IMG/VR virus record: IMGVR_UViG_2537561935_000012
Reading direction: 5' to 3' (one strand)
Source: a virus
Lineage: Duplodnaviria > Heunggongvirae > Uroviricota > Caudoviricetes
DNA length: 64,000 nucleotides
Translations under genes and position numbers: made by a program
Shown: in pieces, positions 3,413-61,685 of the stretch
How the letters are laid out: each line of letters opens with the position of its first letter
Numbering within the stretch: the stretch's first letter is position 1
The notes under the pieces: generated by a model
Database searches by the model: none
Told to the model about the DNA's origin: nothing
The model's input: only the letters and a program-made list of their open reading frames with translations

Positions 3413-3742
3413 GTGCTTGACACACAGGAATTAGCTCCAGTTGCTATTGCGCTCCTGCTTTCAGTAATTGGTGGGATAGGCACGTTCCTGATGGATGTCC
3501 GAGACGGTCGCCAGTCTGGCAATTTGTTGGGATTGGTTACGGAGATCTTTGTTGCAGTGACAGCTGGCGCGGTGGCGTACCTATTGGGGCAACACGAGGG
3601 CTGGGAGTTATCAATTACGTACTTAATGGTAACGATAGCCAGCAATAACGGTCATGAGGTGATTTCAGGGATGAAACGAGTGAATATCGATAGCATTCTG
3701 AATGTTCTTACAAGTTTGGTGAAAAAGGGAGGCGGGAAATGA
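3413..3742 (+). CDS. lydA: Holin (LydA-like)
   Basis: 109 aa, multiple TM segments, first gene of the late operon ahead of darA; size and position match P1 LydA. Confidence 0.55.
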   Translation: MLDTQELAPVAIALLLSVIGGIGTFLMDVRDGRQSGNLLGLVTEIFVAVTAGAVAYLLGQHEGWELSITYLMVTIASNNGHEVISGMKRVNIDSILNVLTSLVKKGGGK

Positions 3743-4182
3743 TTGGCTGGGGTGTATGCGTTCTTGCGTTAGCCTTAGCCGATCGCTATTTGCTAAAACG
3801 CAAGGACATCACGCATTTAGAACTTGGTGATGTGGAAATTAAACCGGGTTTCATCCGGGTGCCGTTCAAGTACCGGTCTAAATTCCCGTTTTTGCGCGGC
3901 GCAACGGTCAGATATTGGATCCGCGATGTTCAGAAGCCGACGACAGTGATTGAAGGTGAACAACGTTGTCTGACGTCGGCTGAACAGGGCGAAAACAGTG
4001 AATGGTTGTACATACCCACTGAATATATGGGTAAAGGAGAGCGACTGTGGCATTTCAACGTCATGGTTACGCATGGCGACTCGTTCATTAACCCGTTGTA
4101 TCGGATTTTCCCTGTTACTCAGCAAATCCGCAGAAGTTACGTAATAAATCTCGCACAGGATGTGTCAGATGACGAAAAATAA
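3739..4182 (+). CDS. lydB: Antiholin-like lysis regulator (LydB-like)
   Basis: 147 aa, N-terminal TM segment, overlaps lydA stop by 4 nt; synteny with P1 lydB. Confidence 0.5.
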   Translation: MIGWGVCVLALALADRYLLKRKDITHLELGDVEIKPGFIRVPFKYRSKFPFLRGATVRYWIRDVQKPTTVIEGEQRCLTSAEQGENSEWLYIPTEYMGKGERLWHFNVMVTHGDSFINPLYRIFPVTQQIRRSYVINLAQDVSDDEK

Positions 4183-4771
4183 GTATGCAACGGTCGATTT
4201 TGACCAGGTTAATGAAAAGGGGCTGAAATCCCTTATCGCGGCGATCAATAAAACCGGTGTTACGGTAATTGAGGTTGACTCCAGCAACCGCGCAACAACG
4301 AAAGATGGCGTTAAAGTTAAAACCGCAAAGCTGGTTCTTAACGACGGACAAATTCTTGCCATACAGGTAAACGATACTGGCGATATATCGTCTGTGAAAC
4401 TGAATGGAAAAGCTATTCCTAACGCTCAGTCGCCGGATATCAAGACGCTTGGTACCGTCATGGGACAGGCGGCCCGCAAAAACTCCGCAAAATTCCAGAA
4501 ATCACTGATCGCCAAAGCGAAGCGTGTTGCCAATCCGGTAGACAAGAAACCGGCAGTTAAATCCAACTTTCAGCGCCTGCAAGAAGCAAAACAGCGGAAT
4601 GCTCAGGTGGTTGCCGCTTATAAGTCCGCGCAGAATTCGGTGTCTTTCAATCAACAGCAGATCACTGATTTGCGGGCGAAGCTGGATAAGGAGACGGGCC
4701 GACTCAATAACGAAAAGGCACGGAATGGCGAACTCAAACGTCGTCTTAAGCAACTGAAAGCAGGAAATTAA
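4160..4771 (+). CDS. hdf: Hdf-like protein of the darA operon (coiled-coil C-terminus)
   Basis: 203 aa, immediately upstream of darA; assignment by synteny and size. Confidence 0.5.
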   Translation: MCQMTKNKYATVDFDQVNEKGLKSLIAAINKTGVTVIEVDSSNRATTKDGVKVKTAKLVLNDGQILAIQVNDTGDISSVKLNGKAIPNAQSPDIKTLGTVMGQAARKNSAKFQKSLIAKAKRVANPVDKKPAVKSNFQRLQEAKQRNAQVVAAYKSAQNSVSFNQQQITDLRAKLDKETGRLNNEKARNGELKRRLKQLKAGN

Positions 4772-44381: not shown

Positions 44382-45644
44382 TCAGCGAACGTAAATAGTT
44401 CCGCCGTTCTCTTTTTCCCATGCATCGCTACGTGCATAGCAAACATCGAGAAGTCTTCTTGCCGCTGTTTCCTCTAAACCCAATTCGACAACCAACTGCT
44501 CATGACGGCGGGTAACCACATCAAACAGGGTATGCAGCCCTTTAGCTGCCAGCTCATCAATAAATTCCGGTTCGAACGGCAGCTCTGCCTCTGCCAACAT
44601 AACCTCTTGCGCCCACTCAACTCGACGGACCAGTTCCGGGCGGCGGCTTTCCATCTCTTTACAGATCAATTCATGGAAGAACTCTACCCAACCTTCCGGC
44701 TGGAACTCGCGGAAAATGGCCAACGGCTGGAAGTTTGGCATCAACCATTCGTTGATCCGGATATCAATGGCATAGCCCATGTCGCAGCAGAACTGATAAG
44801 CAAAGTCCAGCTTAGAAACGATATAAGGACGCTCGTTATTGAACTCTTTAGGCGATGAGATCCCATAAGCCAGGAGGCGCGGGAAGAAGGAGATTTGCCC
44901 TAACGTCGGATGAAGTTTGCTTGCAGGGAAACGGCGCTCAGTAATGCCATACATTTCCTTCTTGAGCGTCGCAAATTTGGCATTCTCATTAACCAGCGCG
45001 GTAACCTCTGCTTTTTTATTAGCAAATGCCACGCGCGCCTCGCTTGCATCTTTAATAGTTTTTTTGAGCTGTTGGTTAAGGTCGGCGACCTGCTTACGCA
45101 GTTCCTGTCGCTCGCTTTTAGCTTTGTTATAGCGTTTCTCAAGGTTAAAAGGATCAAGTTTCATGATCTCTTTATATTGAGATTTTAGCGTTGAAATCTG
45201 TGAGTTCCGCAGTTCAACCATCGCGGTCATTTCATTGAGTTTTGTTTCCAGCTCAATGCTTATACGTTCGGCATTATCAGCACGCTGGTTGGCGTCATGC
45301 GTCGCATCGTCGATCGCGTCCTGTTGCTGGCGTTTCAAATGTTCAATTTCCAGCTGAAGCTCTTCAATTTCTTTACCCTTCAGACCGAGATCCAACTGCA
45401 TATTTTCAGCTGCATCTACCAGGGAGTTATGGCTATCAGCTTCTGCGTTATAAACATCAATAAGCTGTGCGTGAAGCATCTCCGCTGACTGAACCGCATT
45501 ATCAAAAAAACGCGCTGTGAGGTCATCACAACTAACGCGGCGTTGCGCGGCCCGGATGTTCTGGATAATGGCCGGGATACCGGCATTCAGGACGTCAGGG
45601 ATAGATACATTTTCGATTGATTGGTTTTGTGCTGAAGTGCTCAT
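44382..45644 (-). CDS. Hypothetical coiled-coil protein
   Basis: 420 aa, long central heptad region plus C-terminal globular domain. Confidence 0.45.
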   Translation of the reverse strand: MSTSAQNQSIENVSIPDVLNAGIPAIIQNIRAAQRRVSCDDLTARFFDNAVQSAEMLHAQLIDVYNAEADSHNSLVDAAENMQLDLGLKGKEIEELQLEIEHLKRQQQDAIDDATHDANQRADNAERISIELETKLNEMTAMVELRNSQISTLKSQYKEIMKLDPFNLEKRYNKAKSERQELRKQVADLNQQLKKTIKDASEARVAFANKKAEVTALVNENAKFATLKKEMYGITERRFPASKLHPTLGQISFFPRLLAYGISSPKEFNNERPYIVSKLDFAYQFCCDMGYAIDIRINEWLMPNFQPLAIFREFQPEGWVEFFHELICKEMESRRPELVRRVEWAQEVMLAEAELPFEPEFIDELAAKGLHTLFDVVTRRHEQLVVELGLEETAARRLLDVCYARSDAWEKENGGTIYVR

Positions 45645-57863: not shown

Positions 57864-58594
57864 TTATTAACCTCATTACTGGTTGGGAAATAAGGTTGCG
57901 GTGCCGGGTGCTTCCCGGTGTCCTTTAGCTGGTTATCCACCGTGGACGGGGAAATAAGGAGAAATAATGGACAGATATAACCATTTCCCCGCGTGCGCTT
58001 AGCCGCATTCACCGCAACGGAAAGAGCATTCCTGGTGGACCTGTAGATTGGGATATGAACCCGTTACAGGAGAATGCTCTTACCTGTTACGTGCTCCGTT
58101 TCGTGGAGCTAACGGCGGGGGATCGGGCCGCACCAGACTGGACTTATTTCAGCGTTATGCTCATGCCAGAGAATCAAACTGTGATGGTCGGTGCTGAACT
58201 CCGACACAGGGTTGTAGCAAGCCCCGCAAAGCGCGCACTACTGTAGTTGCGGCACATCAGCCTGTGCATTCACCACAATGTTGAGAACACTGGTTGTCAC
58301 GCTGCAACGCAACATTTATTCGTAGATTGGGATATGACCCCGTTACGCCAGTGTTCTCAACGTTGTAGTGCCGGTTACGGTTCCGGCCAGGCCTCTTCCT
58401 CAACGGGGTGTTCTCCATACGGACTACCGTTTATTGGTCGTTCCTGCGGTTTATGTTGTGAAGCCAGATGCTTATCTTCTGGTTGCTTCAAAGAGCTGCA
58501 CTTCATCACAACGGTAAGGGTACTTCGTAGGGATTCGAACCCTCTGCCAAGCTCGGCGATCTCCGACGTCGCAAAATACCCTTACCTGTTGTGC

Positions 58595-58670
58595 TGGTGC
58601 CGATTAACGGACTCGAACCGCTGACATCCTGCTTACAAGGCAGGCGCTCTACCAACTGAGCTAAACCGGC
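58595..58670 (-). tRNA. tRNA-Thr (UGU anticodon)
   Basis: 76 nt GCCGGTTTAGCTCAGTTGGTAGAGC...CTTGTAA...GGTTCGAGTCC...CACCA with CCA end. Confidence 0.85.
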
Positions 58671-58672
58671 AT

Positions 58673-58748
58673 TGGCGATGGTGGATGGATTTGAACCATC
58701 GACCCGTTGATTAACAGTCAACCGCTCTAACCGCTGAGCTACACCATC
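58673..58748 (-). tRNA. tRNA-Asn (GUU anticodon)
   Basis: 76 nt GATGGTGTAGCTCAGCGGTTAGAGC...CTGTTAA...GGTTCAAATCC...CGCCA, 2 nt from tRNA-Thr. Confidence 0.85.
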
Positions 58749-59402
58749 ACTTGCCGGGTACGTCTCCGGCGAGGGCTTCCACCTCCGTATGCTTTTCGGC
58801 GCACCGCGCCCTGGCTGCAATTCGGTAACAGGGGATGCACAACCCTGGCTTCCAGCGTGATTAGCGCCTTCAGCATGACGGGATATACCCGTAAATTCGT
58901 GGAACTGTACCCAAAGTGCTGTTAAGCACCGCTGTTACGCTGAAAAGAAAACGCAACAGGAAAGGACGCTGACCAACAGATGGCCCCTTCTCGTTCATCT
59001 GGTTAATCACACCAGCGCCCTTACCTGTTGTGCCTCCCCGTTCCCTAATACACAGACGGGGACACTCTGCGGTCGATTTTTTGACGGGGGACGACTCATA
59101 CCCCGTGGCATCTGGCTTCTTAGGCCGCTACCATCATCAGATCATCGTTTGCATTTACTTTAATGGTCAGTTTCTAAACCGCCGCAAAGTCGCTAACCAT
59201 GACGAAAACCCTGAAAAAAACGCCCACCCGAAGATGGGCAAACTGGAAGCTCGTAACGCACTTCGGCGTTGCCACTTAGGCGCATGGTCAACCTGGCAAC
59301 TCGGTGTTTTGTCTGGGAGGACTAGGCCCAGCCATGCTTACCGCCGCGCCTGTCGCGGCTAACAGCTAAATCGCTCTATAAATCACGATTCATTGAGGCG
59401 AT

Positions 59403-59430
59403 ATTACACTAATAAATTTATTAGAGCAAT
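59403..59430. promoter_or_regulatory. Overlapping divergent pair of C1 operator-like sites
   Basis: AAATTTATTAGAGCAAT (59414-59430) is a perfect reverse-complement match to consensus; ATTACACTAATAAATTT (59403-59419) has two mismatches. Located between dmt stop and the tRNA/ban cluster. Confidence 0.65.
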
Positions 59431-61685
59431 ATACCCAAAACGTCATGAGCTACACCTCGAGTGTCCCCCTTACAAGACACAGAACGTCTGGCAAAAAGAG
59501 GTTCCACTCTGAAGCCACTGTCATGATAAAGCTCTCTGATGTTTGGCGCGCCACTGTTAGTAATGAGAACCTTTGCACCTCGACGATGAGCATCCGTCAA
59601 CAGAGACACCAGGCGTTTTTGCTCTTCAAACTTAAAGTCATGACCGGAATAGTTCGTGAATCCCTCTGTATTTGGAAGCGGTTCATACGGCGGATCGCAA
59701 AAGATGACATCTCCTTCTCCGGCAGCTTCAATCACCGCTGCAAAATCACCGCATACAAACTCAGACCGCCCTTCCGCACCGAGGAAGGCTTCCATCTCCT
59801 GTAATGGGAAATACGGAGTTTTATACTTCCCGTAACCGACATTGAACTCACCGGCCTGGTTGTAACGCGTCAATCCGTTAAAACAATGTCGGTTCAGGAA
59901 CAAAAACGCCGCTGCGCGATGTAAATCATCATAGACTTGTTTGTTAAACGCATTCCGTACTGCCAGGTATCCTTCCTGTGTGTTGTAGCCCTGGAAGAAA
60001 CGATGCGCCAGTGTGATAAGTGAATGCGCCTCGCGTTGCAGAGTCTTGTAAAAGTTAATCAGGTCAGCATTCACATCATTTAGCAGATTTTCCTGGTATC
60101 CGGCATTCGTGAAGACAGCTCCGCCACCGACAAAAGGTTCGATCAGGCGCTTCCCTTCTGGCAAATAGCGAAAGATTTGTTCCAGAACACCAAATTTTCC
60201 ACCAGCCCATTTGAATATGGACCGTTCGAATTCTGCCGCTGGTTTAACTTTTCGCTCTTTTGTTTCACTTCCTTCTTTCTGCCGACATACGGCCTTAGTA
60301 ATCCGATCGCCAATCCAGCGCATTACTGGTATTGCCATACTATTGCCGATCGCTTTGTAACGCGGTCCGTCAGCTGCAAGCATCGCGGCCTCTTCTTCGC
60401 TTAAATATGGATAGTGATTGCGAAGATATGCCAGTTCATCTGAATTAACTTTTTTACGCTTTTCCGTCGGGATCAACGTATGCCCATCAGGAAAACCTTG
60501 CAGCCTTTCACATTCGACAGGGGTAAGACGGCGGACAGCTACTTCTGCGTTTCTTACTTCATAGCAAACAGCTGTTGGATTTTTAGCCATTAGAGATGGT
60601 GAAGTATTCTTAGTTGCAGCATGTTGTGTACCGCTCATACGCTCAGGAAAAGCCAATGTAACAAGATGCTCATGGCTTTCTTGCTCACGTGCCCGCAATG
60701 TACCATGCCCTTCTGACCAAAAACCTGCTCCTGTGCTGCTAAAAACGGCAAGGTCAGTGGCATCTTTAAAATCTCTTGCCTTTACTGTCGATGCGGTTTC
60801 ATCGTCAATATATTCCCCAAATGCTGCCATCCTGAAAGCGTTTACGGCTTTCGTCGATTTCATACCGGGTGGCATGTCAGCGTGTAGGCATGGATTTAGG
60901 CTTTCGCCACTGATTGCAGCGCCATTTGCAATAATGGCGGAAGCGATTTCCTTCTTTTTTCGGCTCGGCGCAATATTCCGACGCACGCCTTCGAACTCAA
61001 AAAGTACCGTTGCGGGATCGAGGTCTGTTCGAGCACTTGCGACAACAAACACGCGTCGGCGTCGTTGTGCCACTCCGAAGTATTGGGCATCAAGGATTCT
61101 CCAGGCCACCTTTCGCTGCGGTCCATAAATACAACCACACTGCGGCCACTTTGGAGCATGGCAACCGGTTTTGCCATCCCACCGCCAGAACGCGTTACTT
61201 TTTCCTGATTCAGGTCGATCACCTGGTTCAAATGGCGCATCTTCTCCAGCCAATCCGGCAAGGAAACATCCGAAGGCGTTATCTGCCGATGACAGGACTC
61301 CTGGGACATTTTCCCAGACGATAACTGTCGGTTTGAGGAAGGACTCAGACCGTTTGTCGTCAATTGCATTTGCAAGCTCCACATACTTCAAAGTTAGCGC
61401 GCCGCGTTCATCATCAAGCCCACCACGTAAGCCCGCGATACTGAATGCCTGACAAGGCGTACCCCCGACGAGCACATCAGGGGATTCGATTTCCCCAGCC
61501 AGGACTTTTTTGGCAAGTTTTGTCATGTCGCCAAGGTTGGAGACATGGGGCCAGCGGTGCGCAAGAACGGCAGATGGAAAAGGCTCGATTTCAGCAAACC
61601 ACGCCGGACGCATACCCAACGGTTCCCAGGCAATACTCGCGGCTTCAATTCCACTGCAAACAGATCCATAGCACAGCTCTTTCAC
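59421..61685 (-). CDS. dmt: Bifunctional DNA methyltransferase: N-terminal C5-cytosine MTase fused to C-terminal Dam-like N6-adenine MTase
   Basis: 754 aa; C5 motifs [11 protein letters not shown] and VVWENVPGV; Dam-like [15 protein letters not shown]...[10 protein letters not shown] and VIFCDPPY. Confidence 0.85.

Follow-up and report, generated by a model that had tools for sequence, protein, structure and literature searches.

This article deals with a set of RNA hairpins that lie among the tRNA genes of a virus of the Caudoviricetes (Duplodnaviria; Heunggongvirae; Uroviricota), IMG/VR record IMGVR_UViG_2537561935_000012, of which one stretch of 64,000 nucleotides, here called the window, was analyzed. 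An earlier reading made from the sequence alone had taken this DNA for a P1-like genome and had marked 58020-58590 as a structured non-coding region near a tRNA cluster; the first point is borne out, the 1.65 kb around the finding being 99.8% identical to phage P1 (NC_005856/AF234172), and the second is the subject of what follows. The P1 ban operon, to which this stretch belongs, is on the minus strand and has the order Pban, dicF-like region, trnA, trnT, hairpin region, tciA-tciB-tciC, trnI and ban, and the P7 record says that the ban operator controls the tRNA genes. I will use the word unit for one copy of the hairpin, that is, a conserved lower stem with an apical insert, read on the minus strand. 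The P1 units are called U1 to U4, with the trnA-trnT cassette sitting between U1 and U2, and the features needed at this point are the following:

~59400-59446, minus strand, Pban, a C1-controlled promoter/operator (GenBank annotation)
58954-59032, minus strand, U1, a fourth copy outside the coordinates of the sequence-only reading, between a tag module described further below and trnA (inverted repeat I2, 18 nt at 89%; frame match)
58673-58748, minus strand, trnA, tRNA-Asn GUU (ARAGORN, Rfam, GenBank)
58595-58670, minus strand, trnT, tRNA-Thr UGU (ARAGORN, Rfam, GenBank)
58507-58593, minus strand, U2, lower stem CACAAC-A-GGUAAGGGUA / UACCCUUACC-GUUGUG (inverted repeat I8)
58271-58370, minus strand, U3, a frame variant, CACUACAACGUUGAGAACACUGG / CCAGUGUUCUCAACAUUGUGGUG (inverted repeat I1, 23 nt at 91%)
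58013-58091, minus strand, U4, lower stem CGUAAC-A-GGUAAGAGCAUUC / GAAUGCUCUUUCC-GUUGCG (inverted repeat I4; frame match)
58247-58624, plus strand, plp (GenBank), with a TTG start and an antisense overlap with trnT
58055-58246, plus strand, upl (GenBank)

All three inverted repeats described by the sequence-only reading are present: the first has arms at 58019-58031 and 58072-58084 (13 nt, 92% complementary) that enclose a 25-nt core at 58043-58067, the second has arms at 58271-58293 and 58348-58370 (23 nt, 91%) that enclose another core at 58322-58346, and the third has arms at 58513-58525 and 58574-58586 (13 nt, 92%) around a T-arm-like AGGGATTCGAACCCT at 58529-58543. The two cores, said to be nearly identical, share 96% identity. 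A 19-nt 5' frame matches three times in the 64-kb window with 1-2 mismatches, at U1, U2 and U4 and always on the minus strand, where 0.03 matches are expected; U4 also matches a 23-nt 3' frame, U3 has the sister frame CAACGUUGAG ... CUCAACAUUG, of which the form CAACGUUGAG...CUCAACRUUG is common to SSU5-like plasmids, and the 3' flank GUUG(U/C)GGUGAAUGC is common to the units (repeat family D1). That the region is structured is confirmed by the minus-strand folds of U4 (-35.6 kcal/mol, z -5.9), U3 (-49.2, z -6.0) and U2 (-41.6, z -5.7), which none of 200 shuffles equalled in stability and whose plus-strand counterparts are weaker by 6-8 kcal/mol; U1 likewise folds on the minus strand at -41.6 kcal/mol (z -5.5). 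The three elements noted earlier and U1 are copies of a single RNA hairpin family, with the minus strand as the sense strand.

The sequence-only reading had named covariation and conservation in relatives as the way to examine its elements, and both were found. The covariation alignment contains 53 distinct arm pairs, with 500 shuffles and slid alignments as controls, and in it 93.6% of cells are paired and 7 of the 19 pairs vary in both partners (as in AGCAUUG/CAGUGCU, CUGCUUG/CAGGCAG and CCAAAUCG/CGAUUUGG), giving a covariation score of 0.231 versus 0.124 for the shuffles, none of the 500 reaching the observed value, and no more than 0.069 for the slid controls; variation in the three outer pairs is limited to changes that create G.U. 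Counted over 84 distinct units, the sense-strand pairs comprise 985 Watson-Crick, 131 G.U and only 18 A.C, and U3, which is conserved in SSU5-like plasmids, again shows changes there that create G.U on the sense strand. The unit is therefore a selected, strand-specific RNA hairpin, and the suggestion that these repeats are protein-binding sites in DNA becomes unlikely because the G.U pairing is strand-asymmetric. A boxA element (rrn/nut antitermination) was considered as well, the boxA consensus being a single-stranded (U/C)GCUCUUUAACAA, and rejected: the UGCUCUUU in the consensus 3' arm is base-paired, gives way to other sequence in covarying variants and does not occur in P1 U1, U2 or U3.

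The lower stem has the consensus (G)CACAAC-A-GGUAAG(A/G)G...C(U/C)CUU(U/A)CC-GUUGUG and comprises about 19 bp, namely CACAAC, a bulged A, GGUAAG with a U.U mismatch and then seven covarying pairs (UAUUUUG/CGAAGUA in U2), on top of which sits an interchangeable apical insert of 30-55 nt. One pattern scan found the unit in at least 120 viral contigs, the U4 type in 17 or more, and the 104 distinct true units have apical inserts falling into 44 families with no 10-mer common between families. Among species-representative genomes true copies occur in Enterobacterales only, apart from lambda contamination, and the genera and groups include Escherichia, Klebsiella, Citrobacter, Enterobacter, Kluyvera, Serratia, Rahnella, Pectobacterium, Erwinia, Pantoea and others; of the 113 pattern matches in these genomes 65 are chance, cleanly set apart by stem pairing, and 20 are lambda contamination. 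The latter are assemblies of unrelated bacteria (Oceanobacillus, Shewanella, Bradyrhizobium and others; loci such as L136, L151, L171, L187 and L194) with the exact lambda unit on short low-coverage contigs, for which contamination by lambda DNA is the most likely source. A scan of the E. coli K-12 prophages DLP12 and Qin found no units. The family is in no Rfam entry: an Rfam search of the region at E<=10 gives the units chance miRNA-type matches only, and a YrlA match there covers the real tRNAs and not the units.

Phage lambda itself (J02459, ~44786-44866) has a consensus unit, GCACAAC-A-GGUAAGAGCAUUG...CAGUGCUCUUUCC-GUUGUGC, which lies 16 nt past the U-run of tR', forms a helix of up to 28 bp and is the sole extended helix of the late leader besides tR'. 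It is the closest system to the P1 units, with the same lower-stem sequence, bulge and U.U mismatch; it too lies in sense orientation within a long transcript that is antiterminated or derepressed, with a small RNA or terminator on its upstream side and genes downstream. The differences are that lambda has one copy, in its late operon, and P1 four, in an early operon under C1 control, and that the apexes are unrelated. This lambda hairpin just beyond tR', the terminator of the 6S RNA, is taken here as the prototype of the family. The literature search turned up nothing on the lambda late-leader hairpin beyond a title from 1988.

The settings of the units are as regular as their stems. Of the tRNAs lying no more than 1.5 kb from a unit, all 170 share its orientation and not one opposes it; in 24 loci the end of a tRNA-Thr lies 5 nt upstream of the unit, as in P1, where U2 begins 5 nt past the CCA end of trnT, and other units start directly past intrinsic terminators (tR') or past small hairpins such as GCUCCACGAAACGGAGC. 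Downstream of the units there is either UGGUGAAU with a covarying hairpin (GCGCAGGCUGAUGCGC in most phages, GCACAGGCUGAUGUGC at P1 U3) or, at P1 U4, an STnc100-like domain. These contexts fit punctuation between transcript segments. P7 keeps the frames of P1 with other inserts at the apex, and its U3 and U4 have a tRNA-Ser between them; in E. coli and Klebsiella, SSU5-like phage-plasmids have the same island in the order Asn-(Tyr)-Thr, U3, a segment, Ser and another unit; and one lambdoid prophage has two units between the Q gene with its tR' terminator and the holin gene. As for P1, the hairpin region would be the non-protein-coding part of an untranslated RNA island of about 1.5 kb that heads the ban operon and is transcribed on the minus strand from Pban, which I rate, as part of the explanation given below, at even likelihood.

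The region is one of eight known variable regions in P1-like phage-plasmids (PMC9603915), and the comparative data directly support the idea that the unit arms are the places where the island is cut and pasted. BLAST breakpoints among 932 plasmids lie inside unit arms, at about 58070, 58360 and 58524, and Salmonella phage SJ46 (L005, ~1727-1800) and the locus L046 have a hybrid unit with the 5' half of U3 and the 3' half of U4, a natural deletion of about 280 bp, which is the product of recombination between the two 25-nt cores. The P7 U4 has a piece of a lambda-type late leader enclosed by its 5' and 3' arms, and extra tRNAs are found in the islands of relatives, a tRNA-Tyr in Ro157c2YLVW, a tRNA-Ser in P7 and D6, and both kinds among SSU5-like plasmids. 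Around these islands I also noted in the E. coli P1-like plasmid NZ_JBRBPZ010000006 (L011) a 129-nt annotated tRNA-Met at 2726-2854, possibly interrupted, that comes after a unit, and a gene for the Thoeris anti-defence protein Tad2 downstream of the island at 3674-4249, and in other relatives an AbiH-family gene or a serine protease beside the island, replacing tciABC.

Now considering what such hairpins may do, I favor processing or insulation, with units acting as double-strand-specific (RNase III-type) processing sites or as insulating hairpins that also mark the boundaries of mosaic cassettes, an explanation that I believe about as readily as I doubt it. In the growing polycistronic RNA each unit would fold into a helix of 20-28 bp, which host RNase III would cut or which would at least work as a structural insulator, so that the two tRNAs, the modules of small RNA and the tciABC-trnI-ban message would be parted from each other with hairpin-protected ends. 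Since the units have their arm sequences in common, these double as homology points through which tRNA-Ser, tRNA-Tyr, tciABC and the tag module are gained, lost or swapped among P1-like, SSU5-like and lambdoid phages. A helix of at least 20 bp between RNA segments of one transcript, with inherited sequence and a free apex, has the anatomy of double-strand-specific phage processing sites, and its length (the apex helix on top of 19 bp, and as much as 28 bp in lambda) is adequate for RNase III. Lambda late RNA is reportedly processed by RNase III, going by the title of Daniels et al. 1988 as cited in PMC7547250, and because the late leader has no extended helix besides the unit and tR', I infer that the lambda sites are located in the unit and that the P1 copies, by analogy, may work alike. 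The suggestion of the sequence-only reading that these are processing signals for the tRNA operon thus comes close to the explanation favored here, with the mechanism itself still a proposal.

The early messenger RNA of T7 (sites R0.3-R1.3) and the leader-trailer helices of rRNA offer a comparison, in that related hairpins or helices are repeated between the segments of one polycistronic transcript and leave stable stem ends after cleavage. The 3' arm of U1 (58954-58965) is complementary to the 5' arm of U2 (58580-58591) over 12 nt at 92%, and this arm pairing could form an alternative helix that encloses trnA-trnT in the manner of an rRNA leader and trailer. Unlike the T7 sites, with which they have no sequence relationship and whose apexes are small and fixed, the units have hypervariable apexes of 30-55 nt with sub-families, and their cleavage is presumed.

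Several points weigh against processing by RNase III. The link to this enzyme comes from one paper, known here by its title, and from the unit being the leader's only long helix, and in a fold of the 613-nt lambda leader the minimum-energy structure pairs the unit arms elsewhere, so alternative pairings are possible. RNase III requires no conserved sequence, and for this reason the conserved lower stem, the bulged A and the U.U mismatch call for another cause, either common descent with gene conversion or a sequence-specific partner. A strong intrinsic terminator on the minus strand at 59221-59240 (UGCCCAUCUUCGGGUGGGCG followed by U7), at the end of the dicF-like region, stands between Pban and the remainder of the island, and transcription of the tRNAs and ban must therefore read through it or begin downstream of it. 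Lastly, the apex sub-families covary and T-arm-like hairpins are enriched among them, and a pure processing-site model leaves the apexes unexplained.

These apexes deserve a closer look. The 25-nt core folds as AC-GGG-(N)YCAUAW-CCC-AAYC inside a covarying helix (variants CGUA/UACG, CCUGUA/UACAGG, GCGUG/CACGC and CCUGAUG/CAUCAGG); in U4 it forms the small hairpin CCUGUA-AC-GGG-UUCAUAU-CCC-AAUC-UACAGG, and in U3 the second copy is accompanied by a further hairpin, UGUUGCGUUGCAGCGUGACA. The three G:C pairs and 7-nt loop of the core resemble the anticodon stem-loop of a CAU-tRNA, the variants GGGCUCAUAAUCC and GGGCCCAUAACCC each being 1 of 13 positions off the anticodon stem-loop of the metY initiator tRNA, GGGCUCAUAACCC. 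The U2 apex consists of a hairpin with the 7-nt loop GUCGGAG (58556-58572) and a near-canonical T-arm-like GAGGG-UUCGAAU-CCCUA (58529-58543), beside which seven acceptor-like pairs covary (variants UUUUG/CGAAG, UUGAG/CUCAU and UUGCG/CGCAG); it has no D-arm and no CCA, and its 3:70 pair is U.G. A degenerate tRNA at 58516-58588 had been offered as one possibility, with tRNA detectors as the means of checking it, and neither ARAGORN (with default settings, lowered thresholds or in its mitochondrial mode, -mt) nor the Rfam tRNA model, even at E<=10, calls a tRNA in 58507-58593. Against 63 phage tRNAs the U2 apex has no significant similarity outside the T-arm (score 14; shuffled sequences average 10.7 and reach 17 at most). 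When the window was searched for antisense targets of the four apexes, only trivial self-matches came up, with a chance level of 10-11 nt. The apexes are real sub-modules and not mere filler, because the sub-families covary on their own and T-arm-like hairpins are enriched; tRNA mimicry is possible for some and is not a property of the family.

It is from these sub-modules that the first rival explanation is built, in which the units are scaffolds that display mimics of tRNA fragments, the stem serving only to stabilize or excise a small RNA. The apex would then be bound by, or act as a decoy for, some host or plasmid factor directed at tRNAs; candidates include anticodon nucleases of the enteric VapC kind, enzymes that modify tRNA and the P site of the ribosome. 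The CAU-like hairpins of U3 and U4 and the D-arm-less fold of U2 with its T-arm fit such a role, as do the covarying helix around the core and the covarying acceptor-like pairs of U2, and strict T-arm-like hairpins occur in 4 of the 44 apex families, a minority, where 0.02 would be expected; the units also lie among phage tRNA genes, commonly seen as counter-defence cargo, and the variable neighbors include the AbiH and Tad2 genes. However, 38 of the 44 families are not tRNA-like, CAU-loop hairpins are only marginally enriched (2 families versus 0.26 expected), the stem below the CAU loop has 3 bp and not 5, position 33 is C in some variants, and all tRNA detectors reject U2, whose likeness to real tRNAs is confined to the generic T-arm. 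I regard this explanation as unlikely, though not negligible. Another comparison is with tRNA-like processing signals (plant mitochondrial t-elements, mascRNA/MALAT1 and the C4 RNA precursor of P1 and P7 that is cut by RNase P) and with YrlA, a bacterial RNA like Y RNA: U2 shares with them a long terminal helix joined to a T-arm-like hairpin, the arrangement recognized by RNase P and other tRNA enzymes, but the units have no Rfam YrlA or tRNA match, U2 is without D-arm and CCA, its 3:70 pair is U.G and not G.U, and tRNA-like units are a minority.

Mosaic breakpoints in the arms and recombinant hybrid units invite a second rival explanation, that units act chiefly as cassette-exchange sites in DNA, attC-like, and that the RNA hairpin is a by-product. 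With the attC sites of integrons they share imperfect inverted repeats, conserved AAC...GTT ends, a center that varies in sequence and length, unpaired stem bases (here the bulged base and mismatch kept in the stem) and an array of co-oriented, promoterless cassettes behind a strong promoter with one site each, the cassette content varying between relatives and the apex sequences being unrelated and not gradually diverged. They differ from attC in that the outer repeats GCACAAC and GUUGUGC are each one position off the consensus RYYYAAC/GTTRRRY, in that the cassettes are mostly RNA genes and in showing no evidence of site-specific recombination. No integron integrase is known in P1, and none of the integron type is associated with the units; P1 has Cre and Cin and lambdoid phages have Int, none of which is known to act on such sites. 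Homologous recombination over the 20-45 bp of shared arm and flank suffices for the shuffling, and the G.U/A.C asymmetry and strict co-orientation are what would be expected of an RNA element, though a hairpin of single-stranded DNA could share this signature. An exchange site in DNA as the chief role thus seems rather improbable.

Somewhat more improbable still is that the T-arm-bearing U2 (58507-58593), and perhaps the cores too, are decaying tRNA pseudogenes left from lost cassettes and now without function. The extra Tyr and Ser tRNAs in the islands of relatives and the near-canonical T-arm make the thought a natural one, but these tRNAs are placed elsewhere, Tyr between Asn and Thr and Ser between U3 and U4, lambdoid prophages keep the U2 type of apex and show compensatory changes in the seven pairs beside the T-arm, and the comparison with 63 phage tRNAs given above finds nothing beyond the T-arm.

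The sequence-only reading saw no convincing open reading frame (ORF) here, which overlooks that GenBank annotates upl and plp but stands in so far as both fail coding tests. In NC_005856 the annotated upl and plp frames carry predicted promoters, two PHROG families that derive from P1-like annotations match Upl (plp has none), and the upl frame is open across 58 codons in p09EL50; yet among 11 distinct full-length plp homologues 4 have frameshifting indels and 7 premature stops, and the 56 variable sites of plp are spread 18/17/21 over the codon positions without bias. What is conserved in upl, its N-terminal half, is the U4 arm and an upstream hairpin read in antisense, which is why upl matches many lambdoid loci and then meets stops in the diverged copies, and it has only four variable sites. 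A Pfam search with upl and plp gave no significant match (best upl E = 0.078, below the curated cutoff), a consensus scan found no sigma-70-like promoter for either, the Prokaryotic Genome Annotation Pipeline (PGAP) annotation of ~700 E. coli P1-like plasmids has no coding sequence in the region, and a 44-amino-acid minus-strand ORF (58375-58509) is not kept in relatives, its first 20 codons lying within a conserved 66-nt block. Knock-down by CRISPR interference shows upl and plp to be non-essential, which is neutral here (PMC10695390). Both are probably annotation artefacts, and it is hardly credible that they are real plus-strand genes, Plp a lipoprotein, with the inverted repeats incidental.

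Furthermore, the units do not stand alone, and the modules between them have structures of their own:

59120-59211, minus strand, tag module, a domain like the mRNA part of transfer-messenger RNA (tmRNA)
58455-58520, minus strand, conserved block downstream of U2, formed by the U2 3' arm and UGAUGAAGUGCAGCUCUUUGAAGCAACCAGAAGAUAAGCAUCUGGCUUCACAAC, with a hairpin at 58460-58489
58093-58267, minus strand, segment Y between U3 and U4, with the small conserved hairpins GCACAGGCUGAUGUGC (58252-58267), GUCGGAGUUCAGCACCGAC (58188-58206) and GCUCCACGAAACGGAGC (58093-58109)
57897-58016, minus strand, STnc100-like structured domain, which begins right after U4, has the closing helix UGCGGUG...CACCGCA and serves as the tciA 5' leader

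The block at 58455-58520, of a type that forms the downstream context of 21 units, has 95.5% identity over 66 nt in Klebsiella SSU5-like plasmids and there runs directly into a tRNA-Ser. Segment Y, antisense to the annotated upl, is 92% conserved in p09EL50, its interval is occupied by tRNA-Ser in P7 and D6 (L003/L004), and its hairpins have compensatory variants (GCGCA..UGCGC, GCCGG..CCGGC) in other phages. The domain next to U4 aligns with the Rfam STnc100/PasD prophage small RNAs (RF02076), including the model's UGGUGAAU start, which is the conserved 3' flank of the units, and a CACCA closing helix, but scores 33.4 bits (E = 6.6e-5) in P1 and 38-43 bits in P7, D6, SJ46 and SSU5-like loci against a gathering score of 47, and it adjoins the units and is not itself a unit. 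STnc100 has been reported beside tRNAs and TerB genes in lambdoid prophages (bioRxiv 10.64898/2026.05.13.724894).

The tag module is found as well in P7 (L004), SSU5-like plasmids (L006-L009), lambdoid prophages, L010 (2690-2785) and many IMG/VR loci. Its tag frame (59120-59152, minus strand) has no start codon, has UAAAU before it and consists of 10 codons, GCA AAC GAU GAU CUG AUG AUG GUA GCG GCC UAA, for ANDDLMMVAA; it is conserved in 46 loci in 10 variants that all end in (A/V)A (others being ANDDLMLMAA, ANDEQFLAVA, ANEEMYLAVA, ANEEVYLAVA, ANDNQYLAVA and ANDDVVLMAA), copies with the same peptide differ at synonymous positions only, and a covarying hairpin follows. With a resume codon GCA after UAAAU and a short frame ending AA-stop, the module has what marks the mRNA-like domain (MLD) of a tmRNA, and it aligns to the MLD part of the two-piece tmRNA models Rfam beta_tmRNA and tmRNA_permuted at 16-24 bits, far under the gathering score of 47. 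No tRNA-like domain (TLD) was found: ARAGORN -m reports no tmRNA in ~240 loci, and no covarying acceptor pairing turned up. U2 was considered as the tRNA-like half of a two-piece tmRNA and rejected, for although 22 of 24 U2-type loci have the tag, 27 tag loci are without a U2-type unit, and U2 has a U.G at 3:70 and no CCA. The literature search found no paper on phage tmRNA-like tags. In the minus-strand RNA there is also a perfect 12-nt complementarity between GAAGCCAGAUGC (59108-59119, right past the tag stop) and GCAUCUGGCUUC (58460-58471, in the hairpin downstream of U2), 636 nt apart, which is probably fortuitous because it is not kept in P7 or the SSU5-like plasmids.

Taking the apexes and these modules together, one may go further and imagine the conserved stem as a common scaffold on which temperate enterobacterial phages display fast-exchanged small-RNA heads, some of which mimic the CAU anticodon stem-loop (with the three G:C pairs of the initiator tRNA), T-arms or a D-arm-less tRNA, and which would, with the tRNA genes and a TLD-less tmRNA-like tag, make up a translation-directed RNA island for counter-defence or host takeover, the heads being decoys or ligands for host factors directed at tRNAs or ribosomes; this is a speculation that I consider rather unlikely to hold.

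P1, SSU5-like phage-plasmids and lambdoid phages share a modular non-coding RNA island of tRNAs, DicF- and STnc100-like RNAs and a tmRNA-like tag module, whose modules are separated by one family of conserved-stem hairpins that is absent from Rfam. Two doubtful genes would come off the map of a textbook phage, and a defined RNA architecture would take their place. The lambda copy eases experiments, as the hairpin resides in the best-studied phage, and the family as a whole offers a testable handle on how phage tRNAs come free of long operon transcripts, how such cargo passes between phage families that are unrelated and what role the apex may play.

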